Below are positions 35,579-45,705 of a stretch of 64,000 nt of DNA, one piece after another (position 1 is the stretch's first letter; every line of letters starts with the position of its first letter). The stretch comes from Candidatus Obscuribacteraceae bacterium (GTDB taxonomy: Bacteria; Cyanobacteriota; Vampirovibrionia; Obscuribacterales; Obscuribacteraceae), in assembly GCA_044229845.1 (NCBI GenBank), contig JBGASG010000005.1:288001-352000 (forward strand), written 5' to 3'. The notes under the pieces were generated by a model. The model made no database searches, was not told the origin of the DNA, and worked only from the letters and a program-made list of their open reading frames with translations. The position numbers and the translations under genes are program-made.

Positions 35579-35598
35579 TGCCACCATATATGGTATCG
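35579..35598. promoter_or_regulatory. Copy of the TGCCACCATATATGGT box
   Basis: TGCCACCATATATGGTATCG matches the ncRNA-array boxes. Confidence 0.5.
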
Positions 35599-35682: not shown

Positions 35683-37263
35683 TCAACCTGGCGCGCCGGC
35701 CAGTTGACGGTCTTTTCGCACCGGCAGCGGATACGCGAGGATATCCATCAGCAGCTCCAACCGAGTCCCGCCTGCCAGCATTGGCAGCAAGCTGGGCAGA
35801 CTGTAGTAGTCACCGCTAAACGTATAGGTGTCAACCTCGATATTGTTTCGCGTCAGAGCCGCCTCCAGATGGTTGGAGAATTGCCCGCAGTTGAGAATCA
35901 TGACCGTAGGCAGGGTGCCCAGTTCTTGTTGATATTGCAGCATTGCATCAGCCAGGTAGGGCTTGCCGTTTTCACCTTGATCGGTGATCACGATCACTTG
36001 TTCGACGAGCTGCTTCTTGCGGCGCATCATATCTAATGCCACGCCGCACGAGGTGCCGCCGTCGGCCTTGATGCCTTTGAAAGCCTTTTCCCAGTCGGAG
36101 AGTTCGTTGCCTTTCGCTTCGATTGCGTAAGCGAGGGTGTCGAACGCGTAGACGTAGAGATTGGCCTGGCATATTGGGGCTACGATGGCGCAGAGCTGTT
36201 TTCCAATTTCAATTGCTTGTTGCATGGAACCACTCTTATCGACAAAGATTGCGGTCGGACGCTTGATCTTGGCTTTGGATTTGATCTGCTTGTCGCCGAC
36301 CTTCTCCACCTTTTGGGCCATTTCGGCATCGATGTCGGCAGCTTGCAGGGCTTGCCGCGTCTTGAGCGCGGATACGCGCTTATCGCCTTCGGCTTCCTTC
36401 AGTTTTGCTTCGATCATGCGGCGCAGATCTTTGTTGTCCATGGCACCACGCTTCTTGAGTGAAGCAAGGTTGTTGATCACTTCCTGCGGAGTCATGGCGT
36501 CGACCAGTGCCACCAGCAATGCCGGCGTGACTTGCTTGATCGCCGAGACAGCAACCCGATAGGGAATCTTGTTCTGCACGATCAGTCTTGCCTGTTCGCC
36601 TGAGTTGTTGGTCTTAGCCAGTTGCTTCAAGACGTACAGTCGACTGCCTTCCGGCGGATCGTTGTCGAAGAGCACACGCTGTGCGTATTCGCCGGGCTTG
36701 ATGCGCAGCGACGCATAGAGTGTCTTCAACGAGGAACGCGCGTGCAGCACAACATTGTCGAACTGCTCGTGATTCTTCTCGCGTTGATGCAGGTAGTCTT
36801 CGATGGCGGTGCGTACAGATCGCGGGACGGAACCCGCGACACCAGGAATGAACTTGCCGCCTTCTTCATGACCCTTGATCAAACCGATCACGCGCTCTAC
36901 CTGATAAGGAGGCAGTTCGGTGATCATCGCGATGCCGGCGTTACGGTATTCGTCGGAAAACTTTGATGTGGCCATGTACGCCGCAAACAATTGCTTCAAG
37001 TCATGCACGCTGCCGTTCTTGAAGTACCAGGCGGCGAGCGGACCGAAAAAGCGCGGATCGCGTTCGTGCACGTGTTCGAAAAGTGGCATGTGCGGTGCGA
37101 CCGCACGGTGCGGCGTGCGCAGCAGTGCGTTCAGGATCGCCAGACGAAAGTCTTGCTCGCCGGCGTTGCGTGTGCGAGCCATGAGTTCGGTGAAGTTAGG
37201 CGCAGGGGTGGTCGCCGCTTGATTGGCTCGCGCCGGTCGTCGTCCCCCTCGTCGTGTAGTCAT
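35683..37263 (-). CDS. Divergent Ro60/Rsr-like TROVE + vWA domain protein
   Basis: About 330-aa helical N-region (DPRFFGPLAAWY; MTPQEVINNLASLKKRG resembling TROVE motifs) then vWA with MIDAS VDKSGSM, GGTSCG, IVITDQGEN; adjacent Y-RNA-like genes. Confidence 0.8.
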   Translation of the reverse strand: MTTRRGGRRPARANQAATTPAPNFTELMARTRNAGEQDFRLAILNALLRTPHRAVAPHMPLFEHVHERDPRFFGPLAAWYFKNGSVHDLKQLFAAYMATSKFSDEYRNAGIAMITELPPYQVERVIGLIKGHEEGGKFIPGVAGSVPRSVRTAIEDYLHQREKNHEQFDNVVLHARSSLKTLYASLRIKPGEYAQRVLFDNDPPEGSRLYVLKQLAKTNNSGEQARLIVQNKIPYRVAVSAIKQVTPALLVALVDAMTPQEVINNLASLKKRGAMDNKDLRRMIEAKLKEAEGDKRVSALKTRQALQAADIDAEMAQKVEKVGDKQIKSKAKIKRPTAIFVDKSGSMQQAIEIGKQLCAIVAPICQANLYVYAFDTLAYAIEAKGNELSDWEKAFKGIKADGGTSCGVALDMMRRKKQLVEQVIVITDQGENGKPYLADAMLQYQQELGTLPTVMILNCGQFSNHLEAALTRNNIEVDTYTFSGDYYSLPSLLPMLAGGTRLELLMDILAYPLPVRKDRQLAGAPG

Positions 37264-37401
37264 GGTGTTGTTCCTATACCTTTAATGTTGGTGTCCTTCG
37301 GGATACCGACATCCACTATGTTGCCAACGGCAATGCGGCACCTTTATATGGTGTCCGCCTGGATAAAACGCGCGCCGGGACAGTGGACAGAGAGGTCTGG
37401 T

Positions 37402-37472
37402 CCTGTACAAGTCGGGAGAGCTTTTGAGTTACGTTTGCAGACGTGTGTAGGCTCTTCCTGTTGGAGCACAGG
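37402..37472 (-). ncRNA. Minimal Y-RNA-like element (Y7) in the leader of the Ro60-like gene
   Basis: CCTGTGC-TCCAACAGGAA-GAGC-CTACAC...GCTC-TCCCGACTT-GTACAGG: same terminal module as the array RNAs, no tRNA domain; candidate promoter TGGCGA-17-TAAAGT just upstream. Confidence 0.7.
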
Positions 37473-37712
37473 GTAAGGGTCACTTTAGCACTTGTCCGCA
37501 AAAATCGCCACGATTTTTGGCTGGCTGTTCTACCAGCCGAGACTGGCTCTGGAAGCGCGTCGACGGTGTTTTATACACGTTTTCGCTAATACGATTCGGA
37601 GAATTTACACCCATGCTGGAGCGGGTTAATGTGGTGACATAGCCCAATTGCCGGAACCACTGACGGCAGCGGGCGATGCGCTCCCACCGACCACACCCGC
37701 GAGGCTACCGCC

Positions 37713-38486
37713 ATGATGCTCACCGCTTTGCTTACCAACATCAAAGAAATTGCGAAGAACTCCAAGCCCACGTACTTCACCAAGGATACGTTCTTCGACA
37801 AGCAGTGGGGGCAGAACACAGCTTTCAACAAAACTCTGGACAAGTCTGTGTATGACCATGAGGACTGCGATGAAGATCAAGAGTCTCAACTGCGCGACGA
37901 GATTCTCGTCAGACTGAAAGCCAAGGGCGGTAGCGGCAGTTTTGTCTCCGGCATTGCGGGCGAATCGATTACATTTCTCGAGTCGTTGAAAAATCGCAAG
38001 GATGCGAAGGCCAAACAACAGCGCCTCTGCAACCAGTCGATGAACGAGCTGCTGGCGCTGATTTTCGAAATGCTCAAATCCTACGCTTACGACTACAACC
38101 ATGCCGTCGGTTACGGACCTCTGCACATCGCCATTACCGATCCGCAAATGGTGACCGAGGTGTTGCGCTTCGATCGTCAGCGCAATCCGCTCGAGTCGGT
38201 GACTTACTTCCGTGCGCGGCTCTCGACCTCGTCGCATTCGCTGGTATTGCGTGGGCAAGACGACGGCATTGTGTTTTTCATATTGCCGGTGGCGCGCGCA
38301 CTAGGATTGACCAAGCAAGAAACGAACTATGAGCCGGCGACTTTGCTGCGCATCAAGGCGGAGAACAATCTTGTCCATTGGGAAACCAAGATCGGAACAC
38401 CCTTGACACCGTCTTCGGTAGAAGCGATCTGCATGGCTGTTTTCCAGTGGTTGATTGAAGAAACCAAAGCGCACATCGCCGAATAG
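37713..38486 (+). CDS. Hypothetical protein, paralog of the downstream gene
   Basis: Shares (F/Y)E(M/L)LK.YA..YN.AVG.GP, RA.L.TS.HSL and WETK.G.PLT with the next ORF. Confidence 0.8.
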   Translation: MMLTALLTNIKEIAKNSKPTYFTKDTFFDKQWGQNTAFNKTLDKSVYDHEDCDEDQESQLRDEILVRLKAKGGSGSFVSGIAGESITFLESLKNRKDAKAKQQRLCNQSMNELLALIFEMLKSYAYDYNHAVGYGPLHIAITDPQMVTEVLRFDRQRNPLESVTYFRARLSTSSHSLVLRGQDDGIVFFILPVARALGLTKQETNYEPATLLRIKAENNLVHWETKIGTPLTPSSVEAICMAVFQWLIEETKAHIAE

Positions 38487-38519
38487 TTTTTGATTTTGAT
38501 ACAGGAGGTCGATTCGACC

Positions 38520-39281
38520 ATGCTTAACGGAATGTTCTCAGGCAACAATAAAGAGCGCAATCGCCCGACGCCGAAACCATTTTCGCAAAACAGTCGCTTC
38601 GACTGCAATTGGGGAAAGGCGTCGCCGGTTGAAAAGGCGCCGCCGCGAGCGGTCGAATCTTCGTCTTCGTCCCGGCGCACCGGCATCTATCCGCAAGTGA
38701 TCACGGGTGAGCATCCGATCGCGCTCGATGCCCGCAGCGTATCGCAAAGACTCAAGGAAACACTCGATACCGGAAACAATAGCGACGGGCATCAGCAGAT
38801 CATTTCCGACCTGGCGCCGCGCGACTTGCTGACCATTATGTATGAGCTGCTGAAGGTTTACGCCGTGGAATACAACTCGGCGGTAGGACTGGGTCCATTC
38901 TATTTAGAACTGACCAGACCGCACGAAGTGTCGGGTCCGCTGCGCCTGCAAAAGGATAGCCGTCCCTCCTCGTGGCTCACAAGAATACGAGCGGCACTGG
39001 CGACATCAACTCATTCGCTTTTGCTTTGTGCAGACGAGGGAGTGGTCACCTTCTATGTCATACCTCTGGAGCAGTTGCATGGCAGCAATGCTCTCGGCAA
39101 AGACGCGGTCGAGGGTCACGAACCGCAGACCTATTTACAGTTGAACAAAATGAGAGGCGGCGTTTTCTACTGGGAGACGAAGGCGGGGTTGCCCCTCACC
39201 ATGTCGCGTGTCGATGCCACGTGCCGTGCGCTATTTCAATGGCTCATTGAAAGAACCGCGGACCGGGTCGCTGGAGACTGA
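38520..39281 (+). CDS. Hypothetical protein, paralog of the upstream gene
   Basis: CAGGAGG RBS before ATG 38520; C-terminal domain aligns by eye with 37713..38486. Confidence 0.8.
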   Translation: MLNGMFSGNNKERNRPTPKPFSQNSRFDCNWGKASPVEKAPPRAVESSSSSRRTGIYPQVITGEHPIALDARSVSQRLKETLDTGNNSDGHQQIISDLAPRDLLTIMYELLKVYAVEYNSAVGLGPFYLELTRPHEVSGPLRLQKDSRPSSWLTRIRAALATSTHSLLLCADEGVVTFYVIPLEQLHGSNALGKDAVEGHEPQTYLQLNKMRGGVFYWETKAGLPLTMSRVDATCRALFQWLIERTADRVAGD

Positions 39282-39309
39282 GTTTGGGACGAGCACGCGA
39301 CATTACTCG

Positions 39310-39343
39310 ACTGGTCGATCTGCCCCCCAGGTCGGCCAGTTTT
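39310..39343 (+). terminator. Intrinsic terminator of the paralog pair
   Basis: ACTGGTCGATCTG-CCCCC-CAGGTCGGCCAGT followed by TTT. Confidence 0.7.
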
Positions 39344-39359
39344 ATGTTGGAACTCCGAT

Positions 39360-39435
39360 TGGAGTGATCGACGGTAATCGAAACCGTACCTTGTCGGTTC
39401 ACAGCCGACGGCTCTGCCACTTAAGCTACGACCAC
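39360..39435 (-). tRNA. tRNA-His(GTG), atypical, CCA encoded
   Basis: GTGGTCG/CGATCAC acceptor, GTCGG-CTGTGAA-CCGAC, ACGGT-TTCGATT-ACCGT, TCCA end. Confidence 0.85.
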
Positions 39436-39439
39436 AGCT

Positions 39440-39510
39440 CTCGGGGAATTGGATTCGAACCAATATTGCAACGTTCAAAGCGTTGTGACCTACCATTAGT
39501 CGATCCCCGA
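39440..39510 (-). tRNA. tRNA-Gln(TTG)
   Basis: TCGGGGA/TCCCCGA acceptor, CAACG-CTTTGAA-CGTTG, ATTGG-TTCGAAT-CCAAT. Confidence 0.9.
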
Positions 39511-39680
39511 TCATCTGCTGCGCTCGGGGAGGAAACGATCTGGTCACTCCGGCACCGGCACTGCAATAGATCCCGACGGAACTGACACCAGTTGGTTTAC
39601 TGGTGTCGCGGGGTCTGTTGCTGGTGCTGGAGTCTCTTCATTGAAGTATGTCTCTGAATGTTGAACTGAATTGATTAGGT

Positions 39681-39755
39681 TGGCCGGAGCGGTTGGAATC
39701 GAACCAACTACCTTCTGCTTCCAAGGCAGACATGCCACCAATGCACTACGCCCCG
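39681..39755 (-). tRNA. tRNA-Pro(TGG), atypical, CCA encoded
   Basis: CGGGGCG/CGCTCCG acceptor, TCTGC-CTTGGAA-GCAGA, GTTGG-TTCGATT-CCAAC, GCCA end. Confidence 0.9.
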
Positions 39756-39862
39756 AGATGTCTCGCTTTTACTGCGGGCGTCTCGGGTTGGGGCGCAATT
39801 GATGTTGGCGTCTATTCATTGGAGAGGGATCGAGTTAATTGGAGAGGGGGGACTACGTTTGA

Positions 39863-39992
39863 TTGCGACCTGCGCAAGTTATGGGAGCTGTTTTTTTGCT
39901 TTGGCGAGGAATCTCTCCTCAGGGTGGATTCGAACCACGGGCTTTCGCCTTTACCAGTTTGTAAGCTCACATTGTTGGAGCGCAGAACGCAA
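39863..39992 (-). ncRNA. Y-RNA-like RNA Y6 (T-arm only subtype)
   Basis: CTGCGC-TCCAACA..GAGC-TTACAA, CTGGTAA, T arm GTGG-TTCGAAT-CCAC, ...GCTC..TAACTT-GCGCAG. Confidence 0.7.
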
Positions 39993-39994
39993 TA

Positions 39995-40050
39995 ATTATA
40001 GTAGCACACTTTATCGGAAGCGATCAACTTTATAAACCATATATGGTGCC
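39995..40050 (-). promoter_or_regulatory. Promoter of the Y6-tRNA cluster with upstream box
   Basis: Minus strand GGCACCATATATGGT ... TTGATC-18-TACTAT(AAT). Confidence 0.6.
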
Positions 40051-40098
40051 TGGTGTTTACACCACCAGTGGTGCCTTGCGTTCGGTTTCCTCTCCAAA

Positions 40099-40191
40099 GG
40101 GAATGACGGGCACCAGCACTTGGCTGAGCCCGTTGTTGAAGTAATGATCGCAGCTGTGCGCGGTTTTTCTGCCGCTTTCAATGCTTCTCCC
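40099..40191 (-). ncRNA. Family-B structured RNA, copy B5 (divergent)
   Basis: GGGA...TCCC closing stem; ACGGGC-T-CAGC-loop-GCTG-GT-GCCCGT hairpin. Confidence 0.55.
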
Positions 40192-40256
40192 ATATGTACG
40201 CATATCTGAGTGAAATCGAAAACTCGTATGCGATTGTGGTGGTGTGTGGTTCCAGT

Positions 40257-40347
40257 GGGGGAGCGGGCCTCGGCAGCATGGCCGGACCCGTGAGAATAAC
40301 TTCGAATTTGTGATATGTGCGGAGTCGGTCACTGACGAAGTTCCCCC
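40257..40347 (-). ncRNA. Family-B structured RNA, copy B4
   Basis: GGGGGA-ACTTCG...CCGAC...ACGGGT-C-CGGC-loop-GCCG-AG-GCCCG-C-TCCCCC. Confidence 0.6.
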
Positions 40348-40514
40348 TATGTTCACCGCGTCCGGGGTCAATAGCCCTGTTCATCGCATACGCCCGCTCG
40401 GAGATGAATTGGGGATTCATTCCGCACTTATTATTGCCAGCCGCGGAAATGAAGAGCCTTCATTTCCATGATTGGACAATCCCGAGTTGCAATGGGACGT
40501 GGTCCAAAGGTCTT

Positions 40515-40631
40515 GCCTGTACGAGTCGAGAGAGCCACTTTGAACACCTCCATGGCGGAGGTTTTCGGATTCGAACCGATTCCTTGAAAGGGAATTACCA
40601 GATTGTATGCTCTTCCTGTTGGGGTACAGGC
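40515..40631 (-). ncRNA. Y-RNA-like RNA Y5 (T-arm only subtype)
   Basis: GCCTGTAC-CCCAACAGGAA-GAGC-ATACAA-TCTGGTAA, T arm TCGG-TTCGAAT-CCGA, hairpin ACCTCC/GGAGGT, GCTC-TCTCGACTC-GTACAGGC. Confidence 0.75.
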
Positions 40632-40640
40632 GATACTATT

Positions 40641-40697
40641 AAAGTAACACGCAAAATGCGTGGTGTCAATAGCCGTGCGATACTAAATATGGTGGCA
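40641..40697 (-). promoter_or_regulatory. sigma70 promoter plus upstream box (drives Y5)
   Basis: TGCCACCATATTTAGTATCGCA-6nt-TTGACA-17-TACTTT. Confidence 0.8.
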
Positions 40698-40711
40698 CTA
40701 CTAAAACAAAC

Positions 40712-40832
40712 GGAGATACGGGCAGCGGCTAGCTATGCCGTGCCCGTGATGATCACTGCGGAGAGCTACTCCGACTGGACCAACCTTTTTCTGTCGATAG
40801 TTTATGAAGCCTTGGCGACAAAAACGATCTCC
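40712..40832 (-). ncRNA. Family-B structured RNA, copy B3
   Basis: GGAGAT/ATCTCC closing stem and three arms, including ACGGGCA-CGGC-loop-GCCG-C-TGCCCGT. Confidence 0.7.
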
Positions 40833-40844
40833 TTTCTTTCTCTC

Positions 40845-41004
40845 AGTTCGCGTACTTTCTGTACAAGTCGAAGGAGCAGAGTTTTGGTGCTCTACCACTG
40901 AGCTATGAGGGCATAAAGCCCCCAGTAGGATTCGAACCTACGCCCACCCGCTTCGAAAGGCGATTGTATGCTCTAAATGTTAGAGTACAGATCGTCCGCG
41001 GACT
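40845..41004 (-). ncRNA. YrlA-like Y RNA Y4 with circularly permuted tRNA domain
   Basis: Terminal module encloses T arm GTAGG-TTCGAAT-CCTAC, looped acceptor TGGGGGC-TTTAT-GCCCTCA, TA, D arm GCTC-AGTGGTA-GAGC. Confidence 0.85.
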
Positions 41005-41012
41005 TTGAGCAA

Positions 41013-41161
41013 TGTATTCCGTATGAGTCGCAAGAGCGTAAACGCGGTCTCGAATTGCTCTTCCTTTGAGCTACACAGGCATGTTGCCCGCGGCAGGTTT
41101 CGAGTCTGCATACTATCGGGGTTGTCGCGTTTGTATGCTCGGGGACTTGAATACAGTTACA
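41013..41161 (-). ncRNA. YrlA-like Y RNA Y3 (degenerate T loop)
   Basis: GCAG-ACTCGAAAC-CTGC, acceptor CGCGGGC-AACAT-GCCTGTG, TA, D arm GCTC-AAAGGAA-GAGC; terminal GAGCATACA / GCTC..CGACTCATAC. Confidence 0.75.
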
Positions 41162-41167
41162 AGGAAC

Positions 41168-41223
41168 AATGTAGCAGATAAAGTTAGTGGTGTCAATAGT
41201 GGTGCGCACCATAGGTGGTGGCT
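41168..41223 (-). promoter_or_regulatory. sigma70 promoter plus upstream box (drives Y3-Y4-B3)
   Basis: AGCCACCACCTATGGTGCGCA-6nt-TTGACA-17-TACATT. Confidence 0.8.
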
Positions 41224-41236
41224 TATCGAGACCAAC

Positions 41237-41353
41237 GGAGAAACGGGCAACAGCTAGCAAGGCTGAGCCCGTTATGACCATCGCGAACAGCTAATCCGCT
41301 TAGATCACACACTTCTTGTCGGTTGTTGCACCAAGGCGACAATGAAGATCTCC
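41237..41353 (-). ncRNA. Family-B structured RNA, copy B2
   Basis: GGAGA/TCTCC; CTTC-ATTGTC...GACAA-GAAG; TGTGATC/GGTCATA; ACGGGC-T-CAGC-loop-GCTG-TT-GCCCGT. Confidence 0.7.
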
Positions 41354-41367
41354 TTACCTTGATGAAT

Positions 41368-41534
41368 TGATGCGGCTGTATGAGTCGATGGAGCGGAGTA
41401 CAAAATCGAATGCTCTACTAATGAGCTACGAAGGAAAGTTCCTTAGGCAGGATTCGCACCTGCTACCGTTCGAGTGAGACAGTTTTTCAAACTGATTGTA
41501 TGTATGCTCAACCTGTTAGGTTACAGTTGCATCA
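41368..41534 (-). ncRNA. YrlA-like Y RNA Y2
   Basis: TGATGC/GCATCA outer stem; TCGAA/TTCGA anticodon-stem equivalent; T arm GCAGG-TGCGAAT-CCTGC; looped acceptor; D arm GCTC-ATTAGTA-GAGC. Confidence 0.85.
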
Positions 41535-41540
41535 GTCATC

Positions 41541-41596
41541 AATGTAGCAAAGACCGATAATGGTGTCAAGGGCGGTGCGCACCATAGATAGTGGCA
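41541..41596 (-). promoter_or_regulatory. sigma70 promoter plus upstream box (drives Y2-B2)
   Basis: TGCCACTATCTATGGTGCGCA-6nt-TTGACA-17-TACATT. Confidence 0.8.
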
Positions 41597-41610
41597 CGCG
41601 ACAAACCAGC

Positions 41611-41723
41611 GGAGAGACGGACAGCAGCCTGGGAAGCTGAGCCCGTCGCGATGCTCGCGAACGCCAGGTCGCGAGACAAGCTTGCTTGTTGTCGGTGATA
41701 GCACCAGGGCAACGAAGTTCTCC
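41611..41723 (-). ncRNA. Family-B structured RNA, copy B1
   Basis: GGAGA/TCTCC closing stem; ACGGGC-T-CAGC-loop-GCTG-CT-GTCCGT. Confidence 0.7.
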
Positions 41724-41737
41724 TTACCTTGATGAAT

Positions 41738-41888
41738 TGATGCGGCTGTAAGAGTCGATTGAGCTTAGATCAACTATTCGCATGCTCTTACCATCTGAGC
41801 TACAAAAGCCGAAGCCTCTGGCAGGAATCGAACCTGCGACCAAGCGGTTACGTGTGTATGCTCTACCTGTTAGATTACAGTTGCATCA
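41738..41888 (-). ncRNA. YrlA-like Y RNA Y1
   Basis: T arm GCAGG-TTCGATT-CCTGC, acceptor CAGAGGC-TTCG-GCTTTTG, TA, D arm GCTC-AGATGGTAA-GAGC, inside the CTGTAA..GAGCATAC / GCTC..CGACTCTTACAG module. Confidence 0.9.
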
Positions 41889-41894
41889 GTCACT

Positions 41895-41950
41895 AATCTA
41901 GCAAAGCCTAGAAGTGGTGTCAAGTATGGTGCGCACCATAGGTGGTGGCA
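41895..41950 (-). promoter_or_regulatory. sigma70 promoter plus upstream box (drives Y1-B1)
   Basis: TGCCACCACCTATGGTGCGCA-6nt-TTGACA-17-TAGATT. Confidence 0.8.
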
Positions 41951-41964
41951 GTATTTAGTAAAGC

Positions 41965-42255
41965 GCTGCGCGGGCAGCGACCTGATTGTCGAGCCCGAAA
42001 TATGCATCTACGCCAACGGCGGTGCTGGTTGTATGGACGGAAAATGACGTCTGCATTTGCTGCATCTGTGAGGACAGGGTCGGTCGAGCCGAGCCGCAAT
42101 TCTCACGGCGATAACCGCCGGCTATGACGCCGTGGTTAAACTGCCATTTTCCTAGTGGTGTTCTGATGTCCTTCACGGACCGAACCTCCATCTCCCCTGC
42201 ACTTCGCGAAAACAAAATTCGCGCGCTGCTATACAAACAACCTGGCAGGCGGAAA
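41965..42255 (-). ncRNA. Candidate ~290-nt structured RNA ending in the family-B hairpin
   Basis: Own promoter; long-range pairs GGAAAATGGC/GTCATTTTCC and GGTTGT/ACAACC; terminal CGGGC-T-CGAC-loop-GTCG-CT-GCCCG. Confidence 0.45.
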
Positions 42256-42259
42256 TTCC

Positions 42260-42297
42260 ATCTTAGGGCCGGCTTGAGAATCCTGTCAATAGGATTT
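42260..42297 (-). promoter_or_regulatory. sigma70 promoter with palindrome over the -35
   Basis: TTGACA-18-TAAGAT; AATCCT-N6-AGGATT straddles the -35. Confidence 0.6.
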
Positions 42298-42340
42298 TCG
42301 CCTCTGCATACCTTTAATTCGCTGAACCTACGCTGGACCT

Positions 42341-42985
42341 TTATAAATCCAGCTCTCTATTAATAGATAGATCGCCCACCGTTACGGAATAGTTCCGCTT
42401 CTCCCCGGTGAGGATATGGCGCACCAGCACCTCCGCTGCGACAGACACCACCAGGGTGACCAGATTGCGGGCCAGCGGATAGTCGCAGATGTCGATGCCC
42501 ACGTCGCTTGGCACACGATACTTCTCGTTCCAGATGACTTCGCCGTATCCGTCGTTCATTCCGGCATGCAGGCAAGCGATGGCGTTATCGCGGCAATAAT
42601 CGGCGACCAGCCGGCGAGAAGCCGTATTGTCGAAGACATCAACCACCAGGGTTGCCCCCTTCAGAAATTTTGCCGCATTTTTCTCAGTTAATTCCTGCGC
42701 TCGCGCGGTGATTTCAACTCCCACCTCGCGATACAAAAGATTGCGCAACAACTCTGCTTTTTGCCCACCGACATCGTCCAGCGAATAGACCTGGGTACTG
42801 ACATTGTGCTCTTCCACGCGGTCCTTATCGATCACCGTCATGTTCGTCACACCCATGCGCGCCAGGGTTTCGGCAAGATTCGAGCCGAGCGCCCCCGCGC
42901 CGCAAATCAAAATGCCGGCAGCGGCAATTTTGCGCATCGCCTGTTGTCCGCGGAAAATCTGTTCGTGATGAAATCGATGGCTCAT
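42341..42985 (-). CDS. ThiF/MoeB/E1-family adenylyltransferase
   Basis: GAGALGSN, DKDRVEEHNVSTQ, KAE, DVFDN; single C-terminal Cys in DICDYP, no CxxC pairs. Confidence 0.9.
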   Translation of the reverse strand: MSHRFHHEQIFRGQQAMRKIAAAGILICGAGALGSNLAETLARMGVTNMTVIDKDRVEEHNVSTQVYSLDDVGGQKAELLRNLLYREVGVEITARAQELTEKNAAKFLKGATLVVDVFDNTASRRLVADYCRDNAIACLHAGMNDGYGEVIWNEKYRVPSDVGIDICDYPLARNLVTLVVSVAAEVLVRHILTGEKRNYSVTVGDLSINRELDL

Positions 42986-43001
42986 CTAATAATTCCTTGC
43001 A

Positions 43002-43442
43002 CTACTCGACAGCAACCAGAACTAGTCCTTTGAATCGCTGCACGCGGGCGACCGCCCGCGGTTTCTTCTCGTATTCATAAATCCATCCGCGCGCGCCGGC
43101 GCTCGTTTCGATCACACATAAAATCGGCTTCCCAAAACAAAAGCACCACGCATCCAAAGTACGGTCGTCGCGCCCGGAAGGACCAGTGAAACCCTCAGGG
43201 TGCGTGTGATAGAAGCCAATCACATCGCCCTCCGCTTCTTCTCGCGCCAGGACACGTTTGCCGTCAAACCGCACTGAGGTCTCCGAGCCCTTTGTGCGCC
43301 AACGCATCTTGGCGTGCCAGACACCATTGAGGCATTCACCCGTCAACACATAGGCAATTTCCTTGCCGCCTGGAAATTCTCCACCATCGGCAAACTTCAC
43401 TGGTCCGGAGGCGGCGGCGTCCTGCTTACCCGAGGTAGTCAT
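43002..43442 (-). CDS. JAB/JAMM (MPN+) metallopeptidase
   Basis: GFYHTHPEGFTGPSGRDD = HxH-x7-S-x2-D. Confidence 0.9.
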   Translation of the reverse strand: MTTSGKQDAAASGPVKFADGGEFPGGKEIAYVLTGECLNGVWHAKMRWRTKGSETSVRFDGKRVLAREEAEGDVIGFYHTHPEGFTGPSGRDDRTLDAWCFCFGKPILCVIETSAGARGWIYEYEKKPRAVARVQRFKGLVLVAVE

Positions 43443-44295
43443 AATAGTTGCCCGCTTCGCGCAATACTCCGACGACGCTGGTCAGGTCGAATTGCTGATC
43501 TTCCCCGCTCAAGCAAACTCCAGCACTTTGCAGTGTCAGGTCGCCGACTGCCACGTTGACCACGTGATCGCGACCGTCCATTTCAAACCGAACGGTTGCG
43601 TACTGTTGATGCTGATCAGTGTAACGAAAACTTTCCAACGTCGCGCCGGCGTGCCGCAATGCATCGCTGATGCGCGTCCGATCGTCCAGCATCGTCTCGG
43701 TCGGATCGTTACGATGCTTATGTAGATACATCATGCGGTAAGCGAGGCGCTCGCTTGGCACCATTCCGCGAGCACGCACTTCACCAGGTTTGATATCGGC
43801 TTCCAACGACCGGCGCAGAGTTCGCGAAACTGCCGGGTCTCGTTTTCGATCTACAGAATCAAACCAGAAGGCTGCGCCATCGAAGCGCGCATGAATGGTA
43901 TCGAAATTGGTGCAGCCCAGAACCAGCTGCACGGGCACCGGACCAGATAACCGCAAGCGTGTGTCAGCTTCGGAATATGCCAGCGCCCACCATGTTTTAT
44001 CTAATTGATCGACGAGCACCAGACGCACGCGAGGAAACAACGCCAGATATTTTGAGACAAGCGAAAGCGGCGCCGTTTCCACGACTTCTGCCACGCCTTC
44101 CTCTACCATGCGCAAGATACAAAATCCTGTTTCTCTCGTGCGCACTTTCATTTCATAGACAATGCCCGCCACGCGAACGCGCACCTTACCGCCTGCAACG
44201 ATCGGAGCAAGAAACGTTGTCTGCGACAACTTCTTTTCTTCCTCTTCCATTTTGGCAATCATCGCCAGCGGATCGGGCCGCTCACGTTCTGTCAT
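43426..44295 (-). CDS. Uncharacterised protein with C-terminal GxCL motif, candidate divergent E2-like/acceptor component
   Basis: Between Ubl and JAB, overlapping JAB by 17 bp; C-terminal SAGVCLSGEDQQFDLTSVVGV. Confidence 0.6.
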   Translation of the reverse strand: MTERERPDPLAMIAKMEEEEKKLSQTTFLAPIVAGGKVRVRVAGIVYEMKVRTRETGFCILRMVEEGVAEVVETAPLSLVSKYLALFPRVRLVLVDQLDKTWWALAYSEADTRLRLSGPVPVQLVLGCTNFDTIHARFDGAAFWFDSVDRKRDPAVSRTLRRSLEADIKPGEVRARGMVPSERLAYRMMYLHKHRNDPTETMLDDRTRISDALRHAGATLESFRYTDQHQQYATVRFEMDGRDHVVNVAVGDLTLQSAGVCLSGEDQQFDLTSVVGVLREAGNYYDYLG

Positions 44296-44320
44296 GATGG
44301 AGCACCGCGCACCCGGCTGA

Positions 44321-44593
44321 TTAACCGAATACGGCTTCTGGGCGCACAGTAATGTTGCCATTTTCGTGGCGTTCGATCACCGTGCTGCTCAGATGTTGGG
44401 GCGGTACTTCCATAAAACGTGCCACAGCGGCGCGAATGTCTGCATCGCTGGAACCCGGGGTCAGCTCGAGCAAATCAAGTGCGATGTCGCGGCTGCGACC
44501 TTGAATGCGTACGTGCACGACCGGACCGGTTTGCGTTTGCGGCTCGGTACCAGTGGCGCGGTTGTACAGGTTGTTGATGTCATCGTTTGCCAT
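44321..44593 (-). CDS. Small ubiquitin-like (beta-grasp) protein ending in Gly
   Basis: 90 aa, strand-strand-helix-strand-strand pattern (VVHVRIQGRSRDI..DADIRAAVARFM..NITVRPEAVFG-stop); AAGGAGG RBS; first gene of the E1/JAB operon. Confidence 0.7.
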   Translation of the reverse strand: MANDDINNLYNRATGTEPQTQTGPVVHVRIQGRSRDIALDLLELTPGSSDADIRAAVARFMEVPPQHLSSTVIERHENGNITVRPEAVFG

Positions 44594-44607
44594 GTGGGAG
44601 CCCTCCT

Positions 44608-45705
44608 TTATCTAAAGGAATGTCGGGGAGAAGTTCCAATCATAGCAGACAATATATATTGCCAAGGACGCTTCAATGCGCCGATGTTTTGCCGCCGGCC
44701 GATTTTAATTTCATCGTACATTTTCTTGCCTTCGAAACAGAGACCACGCTGCATCAACGCCCAGGTTGCATTCGGGTCCAATTTCAGAACGCGGTCGTAA
44801 TCTTCTATCGCCGGATCAAATTTATTCTGGTCCTGAAACATCTTCGCCCGCTGCCCAATTACTTCAGTGTCCTGCGGGTTGGCTGCGATGGAACTATTAA
44901 AATCAGCCATTGCCTCGGCATTCTTTTTGATGCCCTGATAATAGATGCCGCGCAAAAACAGCGCTTTAGCCTGCTTTGGATTTAGCTTGATCGCCTTATC
45001 GAGATCCTGCTTCTCGTGCACTCGATCTTCCATGAATGAGTAGGCATCGGCGCGTCCGGTCAGAGCATCGGCAGAAGATGCATCCCAACCGACGGCTTTG
45101 TTGTAGGCCATCAGTGCACGGCTATATTGATCGCGCAGCATGTAGGTGTTGCCGATCTCAATAGCTTTCACCGACATCTCAGCATTTTTCAAGCCTTTCT
45201 GCGCGGTCAGTGCCACCAGTTCTTTCGGAGGCTGCGTGCGCTGCTTTTCGATAAATGCAATACGCTTCGTCATCTTCACGGCGTCAGCGGTTTTGCCGGT
45301 GCGCTTCAAAAAGGCAGCATATTCTTGAATCGGAAAAATCACCGTCGGGCCGTCGTCGCCGTCTTGCGCTTCGCGTCCAGCAATAGCGTCGCGATGAAAC
45401 TGGTCTGCTTTGTCCAGCTGTTTCATCTTTTCGTACACATCGGCGATTGCGATTTGCTGAACCATCAAGTCCAACCCTAAAGCTTTTCGCTGCTCAAGAA
45501 TCGCATTGTATTTCTGCAATGCAATTTCAAACTTGCGATTCTTAATTGCGGTCTCCGCATCGCGCCCCATCACCATCCATTCGCCGCTGCCTTTCTGGAT
45601 GGCCGCAGCCGTCTTTGGATCCCGCGATGCAGCAAATGCATTCGCACCCACGATCGAAGCGATGGCGATTGCCACCAGTGTCGCGCGCGCTATTTGAGTT
45701 TTCAT
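44608..45705 (-). CDS. Secreted TPR-repeat protein, apparently C-terminally truncated
   Basis: Signal peptide and many TPRs; last repeat breaks at KKMYDE and reads through the Ubl promoter. Confidence 0.75.
   Translation of the reverse strand: MKTQIARATLVAIAIASIVGANAFAASRDPKTAAAIQKGSGEWMVMGRDAETAIKNRKFEIALQKYNAILEQRKALGLDLMVQQIAIADVYEKMKQLDKADQFHRDAIAGREAQDGDDGPTVIFPIQEYAAFLKRTGKTADAVKMTKRIAFIEKQRTQPPKELVALTAQKGLKNAEMSVKAIEIGNTYMLRDQYSRALMAYNKAVGWDASSADALTGRADAYSFMEDRVHEKQDLDKAIKLNPKQAKALFLRGIYYQGIKKNAEAMADFNSSIAANPQDTEVIGQRAKMFQDQNKFDPAIEDYDRVLKLDPNATWALMQRGLCFEGKKMYDEIKIGRRQNIGALKRPWQYILSAMIGTSPRHSFR
44639..44663 (-). promoter_or_regulatory. Ubl operon promoter: extended -10 with adjacent palindrome
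   Basis: Minus strand GGCAATATATATTGTC-TGC-TATGAT. Confidence 0.55.

Follow-up and report, generated by a model that had tools for sequence, protein, structure and literature searches.

Y RNAs are known to mimic tRNA, and most of their effectors are unknown; to our knowledge, the ubiquitin-like pathways of bacteria operate without E3s. Bacterial Ro60 (Rsr) has been described together with the RNAs YrlA and YrlB (Chen et al. 2014, PMC4201824; Wang et al. 2018, 10.1101/312249), and the cyanobacterial YrlAs in the supplement of PMC4201824 have GNCGAA-like 5' ends and lie beside 533-aa Ro60 proteins. Ubiquitin-like conjugation is represented by the Bil (BilABCD), Bub (6E/DUF6527) and type II CBASS systems (PMC11601596, Ye et al. 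2024; PMC1779556, Iyer et al. 2006). In addition, the cyanobacterial trn (L-array) operon, with the TrcR regulon, holds supernumerary tRNAs that are described as induced by translational stress and proposed as possible sponges for toxin RNases (PMC8421152, PMC10272220). Here we describe a locus in a 64,000-nt stretch of Candidatus Obscuribacteraceae (GCA_044229845.1; the whole stretch is hereafter called the window), in which the gene for a Ro60-like protein with TROVE and vWA domains is linked to genes for a ubiquitin-like protein (Ubl), an E1, a JAB peptidase and a protein with an invariant cysteine (Cys protein), and to an array of Y RNA-like RNAs.

Linkage of a Ro60-like gene to a ubiquitin-like cassette

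Open reading frame (ORF), family and tRNA calls place the five protein genes of the system, as well as three tRNAs listed further below, on the minus strand where an earlier note on this DNA had put them. The protein genes are as follows:

44321-44593, minus strand: Ubl, 90 aa, beta-grasp model, mature C-terminus RPEAVFG
43426-44295, minus strand: Cys protein ("GxCL" protein), 289 aa, N-terminal OB-type barrels and a C-terminal domain with invariant Cys261 (AG[IV]CL), presumed E2-like carrier
43002-43442, minus strand: JAB/MPN+ peptidase, Prok-JAB match at E 2.5e-7, residues E28, H79-x-H81, S89 and D92
42341-42985, minus strand: minimal E1 (ThiF family), ThiF match at E 7e-33, no CxxC zinc sites, invariant Cys167
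35683-37263, minus strand: TROVE-vWA protein, divergent Ro60-like, 526 aa, profile matches to Ro60 structures, intact MIDAS

The TROVE gene and the Ubl cassette, which the earlier note had supposed to belong together, are strongly linked in other genomes, across phyla and in giant phages. Three sets of loci were compared, namely genome loci (the best 80 of 568 found with TROVE; mostly from cyanobacteria, and also from Vampirovibrionia, Planctomycetota and one deltaproteobacterium), metagenome loci (357 were retrieved with the Cys protein, and the best 80 of these, many on short contigs, were used), and 25 viral loci, one of them from a 595-kb phage. Among these 80 genome loci, Ubl is found in 58, the Cys protein in 40, E1 in 35, and JAB in 4; the corresponding counts for the 43 genome loci of at least 20 kb are 40, 24, 20, and 1. 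TROVE is present in 42 of the 80 metagenome loci. The viral loci have Ubl in 24, the Cys protein in 22, JAB in 21, and E1 in 20 cases, and 17 of the 18 that are at least 20 kb long contain all five genes together. Almost all module genes (353/355) are on the TROVE strand. The typical arrangement runs Ubl, RNAs, TROVE, Cys protein, JAB, and E1, and the lineage of the window has a rearranged version. TROVE, the Cys protein and Ubl are present in the same 8 of 41 relatives, and among 301 sampled genomes of the phylum, the TROVE clade and the Cys protein each occur in 34, with both in 32.

Judged from its sequence, the 526-aa protein is a member of a divergent Ro60 clade, because its profile matches solved Ro60 structures and its MIDAS (metal ion-dependent adhesion site) is conserved, yet the Pfam TROVE model (PF05731) gives no match to it and vWA_Ro60 reaches only E 0.013. 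Positions 199-418 of the profile (33 sequences) match phage phiRo60 (9l5y and 9kop, structures reported in PMC12135203; E 3.8e-6), human RO60 (E 3.9e-5) and Xenopus Ro60 (0.0098). The MIDAS residues (DxSxS...T...D; D342, S344, S346, T404, and D428) are invariant in the 33 sequences. Two or three paralogs of this clade are found in L055, L061, G020, and G001 (loci or genomes).

The 90-aa protein, as modeled (predicted local distance difference test [pLDDT] score of 82), is a beta-grasp ubiquitin-like modifier whose C-terminal glycine is exposed. The beta-grasp fold had been proposed earlier, and the model and the fold matches agree on it; the latter are beta-grasp chains (PB1, MoaD, ISG15, and FAT10) at Z 4-6, which is a middling score in a list that such chains dominate. 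R84, P85, A87, F89, and G90 are invariant among 116 homologs, and the C-terminus is [VI][FYW]G in 104 and FG or YG in 103 of the 115 locus copies. The E1 is a stand-alone single domain of 214 aa that has an adenylation domain with a nucleotide-binding motif and lacks CxxC; its Cys167 is kept in 98/98 sequences, and its top scores in the family-model scan are with ThiF/MoeB models. JAB has an intact metal site (E...HxH...S..D), and its HTHP and PSxxD motifs are conserved in a 74-sequence alignment. For the window proteins, PADLOC and NCBIfam gave generic E1 and JAB matches only, below the curated cut-offs where these are given.

The Cys protein is modeled confidently, with a pLDDT of 92. Residues 76-153 match OB folds (Z 6-7.5), including those of RNase II/R, Unr, IF5A, and the proteasome ATPase, and the invariant Cys is present in 145/145 aligned sequences. 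In the model, the Cys domain consists of a helix, a three-strand meander, a short strand, the Cys, and a helix. We take this topology and the G[IV]CL motif to be E2/UBC-like, which no search confirmed. For E2 homology, nothing was obtained from a Pfam scan of 109 members, Atlas, and a viral fold library, nor among the best 150 of 1005 matches in a representative search, which are unannotated. The protein is presumed to be an E2-like carrier.

A shared stem with tRNA-like and rRNA-like cargo

The RNAs of the window have a common stem that comprises a 6-bp helix, an internal loop (YCYRAC / RACUY), a second helix, and then NUAC. The recurring RNA module seen in the earlier note corresponds to this element, with six copies in the array and one in the TROVE leader:

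41746-41880, minus strand: Y1, shared stem and permuted tRNA (T arm, closed acceptor stem, D arm), Rfam YrlA 38.3 bits, E 5.9e-6
41376-41526, minus strand: Y2, shared stem and permuted tRNA, YrlA 31.1 bits, missed by the strict stem pattern (one terminal-stem mismatch)
41019-41156, minus strand: Y3, shared stem and degenerate permuted tRNA, YrlA 24 bits, E 0.084
40859-40990, minus strand: Y4, shared stem, anticodon-like hairpin (UUC) and permuted tRNA, YrlA 35.2 bits
40517-40629, minus strand: Y5, shared stem with a short anticodon arm and a T arm; its anticodon reads UUC in the window and UCA in the related genome G001
39870-39985, minus strand: Y6, shared stem, long-variable-arm-like hairpin, T arm and closed acceptor stem
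37403-37471, minus strand: Y7, the shared stem alone, in the TROVE leader

Y1-Y4 match Rfam YrlA (RF02553) at 24-38 bits, all under the gathering score of 69. Together with the permuted tRNA anatomy, these sub-threshold matches show the RNAs to be YrlA-like, in agreement with the earlier description of an array of tRNA-mimicking Y RNAs. The strict permuted pattern (T arm, closed acceptor stem, D arm) has only three matches in the whole genome of the window, all of them in the window. The 5' GNCGAAN0-1G motif for Rsr binding is absent from the window RNAs, and their 5' strands have YCYRAC-loop stems. The genome G001 has more RNA copies than the window, and they are differently arranged.

Across all sources, the stem pattern was found in 398 copies (129/197 sources). 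Of the loci, 74 of the 80 genome loci, 38 of the 80 metagenome loci, and 11 of the 25 viral loci have the stem, with a looser look finding variants in more of the last group. The 5.2-Mb genome of the window has seven copies of the pattern, six in the window and one on contig C8; this last copy (C8:227057) is a lone bare stem with no module gene seen downstream. The pattern itself demands pairing, so pairing was retested on a selection made by motif only. In this selection, the terminal stem is fully paired in 296/408, compared with 97 (maximum 118) when partners are shuffled, and an unconstrained extension of three pairs is paired in 248, compared with 102 for shuffled partners. By orientation, 370 stems are on the TROVE strand and 10 are opposite. 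Some stem RNAs of L017, L018, L142, L171, and L194 lie opposite the TROVE strand, in the gap upstream of TROVE. Among the bare plus-strand stems with a downstream module gene (n = 78), 45 are at most 300 nt from TROVE and 8 from the Cys gene. These positions before the two genes suggest feedback by a stem-binding protein, i.e., autoregulation, and the TROVE protein would be the binder.

The cargo attached to the stem varies greatly. Among 385 distinct RNAs, 46 have permuted T and D arms, 102 have an anticodon arm and a T arm that no D arm follows, 67 have the T arm only, 81 have little or nothing, and 89 have other cargo. An anticodon arm in tRNA register is found in 123 of the 201 T-arm RNAs, compared with 17 after shuffling and 43, 21, and 6 in shifted registers. 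Features that had not been selected for are tRNA-like in these 123 arms as well (U33 in 106, pyrimidine 32 in 114, and purine 37 in 113). There are 37 different anticodons, which cover 19 amino acids and stop (nine are stop-reading). The linear tRNA bodies have a single acceptor-like sequence whatever their anticodon, and the anticodon differs in 36 of the 73 linear-body pairs with at least 85% identity. The common acceptor-like sequence and the anticodon swaps therefore argue against charged, decoding tRNAs. CCA occurs near positions 74-76 in 24/85 linear bodies. In the 80 genome loci, 97 of the 204 tRNA calls by ARAGORN fall inside stem RNAs, which explains many odd tRNA calls. Long tRNA arrays are also present in several loci. 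Other conserved classes of cargo were noted at L023:462-582, L049:9635-9776, and L026:136-360, with a GCAAGCCU...GCAGGC motif and perhaps a pseudoknot.

The modular RNA library with its rRNA-site mimics, which occur in related loci, is the most surprising part of the system. In one class (about 200 nt), the sarcin-ricin loop (SRL) is joined to the GTPase-associated centre (GAC), and Rfam places the GAC part at large-subunit (LSU) rRNA positions 1179-1234 (E 4.9e-13). The other class (about 180 nt) has the sequence of 23S helices 69-71 (H69-71), apparently permuted; these sequences were checked against the 23S rRNA of the genome of the window. The 297 longer cargos include 17 SRL and 19 H69-71 cases, and 48 cargos match rRNA, compared with 6-13 after shuffling. 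In 16 aligned SRL-GAC RNAs, all cells are paired (320/320) and 7 of the 20 pairs have two-sided changes, whereas slid controls give 35-57%. In the unbiased set of 301 genomes, the combination of stem and SRL was found in 26, 25 of which have the TROVE clade, and the reversed pattern in none. Two metagenome loci with JAB-containing cassettes also have GAC (L144) or H69 (L186) cargo. Calls for tRNA-Arg and tRNA-Ala flank an SRL-GAC RNA at L022:2421-2628, which lies inside a long array of tRNAs. Motifs for the P loop, 530 loop, h44, L1 stalk, and peptidyl transferase centre (PTC) had no matches in the loci. The SRL-GAC RNA was not found on the tRNA-array plasmid of Anabaena PCC 7120, and two other plasmids matched.

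Promoters, expression, and neighboring genes

The remaining features of the window are as follows:

41892-41951, 41538-41597, 41165-41223, 40638-40698, and 39995-40052, minus strand: five units of palindrome and sigma-70-like promoter (promoter scan)
40255-40495, probably minus strand: RNA contig of about 235 nt inside the array, abundant, without the shared stem
39681-39755, minus strand: tRNA-Pro(UGG) (tRNA call)
39440-39510, minus strand: tRNA-Gln(UUG) (tRNA call)
39360-39435, minus strand: tRNA-His(GUG) (tRNA call)
37713-38486 and 38517-39281, plus strand: two paralogous ORFs, 257 and 254 aa, between the tRNAs and the TROVE gene

The array RNAs had been called promoter-driven. The promoter scan finds 5 sites, compared with 5.3 in shuffles, so the count alone is not above chance; what speaks for the claim is only that the five promoter-like units, which have a palindrome upstream, keep register with the repeats. 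This palindrome (CACCA-N4-TGGTG), the operator of the earlier note, does stand ahead of the five promoter-like sites. Its role as an operator specific to the system was rejected, since the genome has 285 copies, about tenfold the number for other spacer lengths (8-41). It is possibly a site for a global regulator or a nucleoid protein, and it resembles an NrdR box. The palindrome also occurs at 35580-35595, upstream of an aspartate kinase gene, and there is an imperfect copy at 37340-37353 in the TROVE leader. Spacer elements follow the RNAs at 41600-41740, 41225-41370, 40700-40848, and 40089-40138, with an AAGGAG-led hairpin and a GC-rich hairpin ahead of each promoter unit. Outside this genus, these hairpins ("H" and "M") were seen again only weakly, in two loci, and the small ORFs within them are not conserved in length. 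Direct repeats of the TrcR type (motif from PMC8421152) lie upstream in 7/65 cyanobacterial loci, i.e., 7 in 44.5 kb versus 22 in 1065 kb, or about 7.6 times the background.

RNA contigs cover the array in all four metatranscriptomes compared, which come from four studies and are 4 of the 21 runs listed. In two runs, the bin depth is 10-37 over the array versus 0-4 over protein genes; these depths come from contigs, from which neither the strand nor a ranking of genes can be read, and carry-over of DNA is possible. The contig of about 235 nt is far deeper in three runs (478 in X3, 283 in X10, and 7 in X9). It has a 99% identical copy in G001 only and was found in no other genus, and two differences in G001 that preserve G-U pairs hint at the minus strand. 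For this RNA, the fold z-score is -1.1 on both strands, Rfam gives no match, no 6S RNA was called in the genome, and the 80-aa ORF that overlaps it matches no Pfam family.

The locus had been described as a block on one strand, which is true of the five genes, the array RNAs, and the tRNAs; the two plus-strand ORFs, which had been overlooked, interrupt it. These ORFs are 30% identical to one another, and a further paralog is on contig C8. They have no notable family match, and weak matches only were seen, in 2 of the 80 genome loci, so that they probably do not belong to the system. The anticodons of the three tRNAs are each found elsewhere in the genome, too. The gene for a TPR protein upstream of Ubl (44608-45705) has an apparent frameshift near residue 331 compared with its G001 ortholog. 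Recurrent neighbors in the 80 genome loci include paralogs of L7/L12 (15) and EF-Ts (8), Tpt1/KptA (13), RNA ligase (4), GNAT proteins, and AAA proteins. A 245-aa protein of no known family is found in 24 of these loci, with the copy at L022:8016-8750 between Ubl and TROVE; it is a possible sixth component in cyanobacteria. None of the recurring neighbor families scanned is rtcB, rtcA, or rtcR. The statement that the window lacks rtcB is correct, and the two RtcB genes of this genome are on other contigs.

Possible functions and relation to known systems

The system may be a bait-and-tag guard of translation (probability about 0.5), in which Ro60 would display decoys of the translation machinery and the cascade would tag their attackers. 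The RNA anatomy reads as a constant docking module with variable baits, beside a putative thioester relay without an E3. A predicted Ro60-like ring would bind the common stem, and each RNA would offer its own look-alike, such as the tRNA elbow or anticodon arm and, in related genomes, either the SRL joined to the GTPase centre or else helices 69-71. The E1 would adenylate the terminal Gly of Ubl, with transfer via Cys167 to Cys261 of the OB-fold protein, which would be recruited to the ribonucleoprotein (RNP). Proteins that bind or cut the bait (tRNA/rRNA nucleases and modifying toxins) would then be tagged and neutralized, and JAB, where present, would remove the tag. Bacteria may use the system in ribotoxic stress and giant phages against host defenses that cut tRNA. 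The SRL is a known toxin target. VapC attacks anticodons and MazF attacks rRNA (PMC8421152). Tagging of attackers is suggested because the baits copy sites that ribotoxins attack. The gene linkage, the invariant Cys in both the E1 and its partner, the recurrence and pairing of the stem, the variable anticodon arms, the rRNA mimics, the neighboring paralogs of L7/L12 and EF-Ts with Tpt1/KptA and an RNA ligase, and the RNA contigs over the array likewise speak for this reading. More tentatively, the system may act as an RNA-programmed ubiquitin-like ligase of bacteria and giant phages, in which the Ro60 clade would be an E3-like scaffold, an evolving library of decoy Y RNAs would pick the ribotoxin or nuclease to be tagged, and new specificities would arise from cargo grafted on the docking stem.

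Several observations weigh against the bait-and-tag reading. The decoy idea of the earlier note gains independent support from the variable anticodon arms and the rRNA-site mimics of related loci, but the window itself has no rRNA mimics (only 12-16-nt rRNA matches, best E 0.087), and an exact-motif search of the viral loci found none either. Of the 80 genome loci, 76 lack JAB, and the genomes and loci are related, so their counts are not independent. For the Cys protein, whole-protein fold searches, whose lists the OB domain filled, showed no UBC chain among the matches listed, a PDB profile search gave no UBC match for the Cys domain, and hhalign of this domain to a two-sequence Prok-E2_B alignment gave a probability of 0.1, all of them weak tests for this domain. 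Its best OB matches include the OB rings of proteasome ATPases, so the predicted fold does not imply RNA binding. PADLOC holds no family for Ro60, Ubl, or the Cys protein. The genes, the folds of Ubl, E1, JAB, and Ro60, the linkage, the RNA anatomy, and the mimicry are shown here, and binding, conjugation by a thioester relay, targets, and outcome are inferred.

In addition, the GTPase centre and the SRL are where elongation factors normally dock, and the partners may thus be proteins of the host. The system could then be a regulator of translation stress, whose mimics would capture, or on ribosome stalling would sense, the cell's own factors (EF-G, EF-Tu, L11, synthetases, and modification enzymes), with the Ubl tag storing, rerouting, or degrading those factors or the RNP. 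The fusion of SRL and GTPase centre in a single RNA, the TrcR-type repeats, the long tRNA arrays, and the autoregulation suggested by bare stems ahead of TROVE and the Cys gene all fit this explanation. However, it appears rather unlikely, given that the hypervariable anticodons (including stop anticodons) and the patchy distribution fit conflict better than housekeeping, and that giant phages carry the system. In a further explanation, Ubl would carry sulfur, which the earlier note had offered as its alternative, or would become ligated to RNA; the E1 and the Cys protein would thiolate or cap RNAs that Ro60 holds, whether tRNA-like or damaged. The ThiF/MoeB scores of the E1, MoaD among the Ubl fold matches, and the resemblance of the OB folds to RNase II/R are in its favor. 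It appears improbable and is weakened by the FG/YG end of Ubl, by the second invariant Cys, which fits a thioester relay, and by the lack of rhodanese, cysteine desulfurase, and PP-loop thiolase among the 24 recurring neighbor families scanned, although such donors could act in trans. The RNAs may also serve as a store of tRNA precursors, or be captured fragments that are neutral, in either case co-regulated with the Ubl cascade and not mechanistically coupled to it. ARAGORN and Rfam score many cargos as tRNAs, some linear bodies have the CCA mentioned above, and YrlA of M. smegmatis is described as processed by RNase P (PMC4201824). Yet one acceptor-like sequence is common to all anticodons, the rRNA mimic has structure-preserving changes, rRNA cargos cannot be tRNA precursors, and the TROVE and Cys protein genes overlap almost completely in phyletic distribution, which makes this the least probable of the explanations considered.

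If the bait-and-tag reading is correct, one module would unite Y RNAs with ubiquitin-like tagging and extend mimicry to the factor-binding and subunit-bridge sites of the ribosome, and giant phages might survive tRNA-cutting defenses by such a route. Direct tests of the role of Ro60-Y RNA effector domains are opened, and the system is testable because cultured cyanobacteria, for example Fischerella and Nostoc strains, carry it. A full-text literature search, judged mostly from listings, found no paper joining a Ro60 protein to a Ubl cascade (a 2016 review beyond it may mention the linkage) and no report of rRNA-mimicking Y RNAs. The novelty rests on the combination, every part of which has known relatives.

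Among these relatives, the sulfur-relay Ubls (ThiS/ThiF, MoaD/MoeB, and Urm1/TtuB) share a beta-grasp protein activated by a ThiF-family enzyme, whereas the present system has an extra Cys carrier and no sulfur donor or thiolase among its recurring neighbors. The Rtc RNA repair operon differs in that the window has no rtcB, rtcA, or rtcR beside the TROVE gene. The trn operon resembles some loci of this system in its L-arrays and TrcR-type repeats; however, its tRNAs are described as charged and normal, and the main texts of PMC8421152 and PMC10272220 do not mention Ro60, the former also having no mention of TROVE, Y RNA, or ubiquitin.

The closest likeness on the RNA side is to Rsr and YrlA/YrlB, which share the TROVE-vWA protein with a MIDAS, the neighboring RNAs on the same strand that have a T arm, a closed acceptor stem, and a D arm (several per locus), and the modular arrangement of a binding stem and an effector domain. 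Unlike these, the window protein misses Pfam TROVE, the stem lacks the 5' GNCGAA motif, related loci have rRNA-site cargos, and the partners are Ubl, E1, the Cys protein, and JAB, not rtcB/rtcA. YrlA as described by Wang et al. (2018, 10.1101/312249) is without an anticodon loop, whereas many RNAs here have one. On the protein side, the system resembles Bil, Bub, and type II CBASS in its Ubl with a terminal Gly, its E1, JAB, and presumed E2, the absence of an E3, and a plausible role in phage conflict. It differs from them in the stand-alone, Zn-less E1 of 214 aa, with no IAD-AAD-CYS architecture or fused E1-E2, and in a carrier that has OB folds and for which no UBC fold was detected; neither DUF6527 nor a nucleotidyltransferase (CD-NTase) was seen. 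Furthermore, the system described here is tied to a putative RNP and is carried by giant phages themselves.

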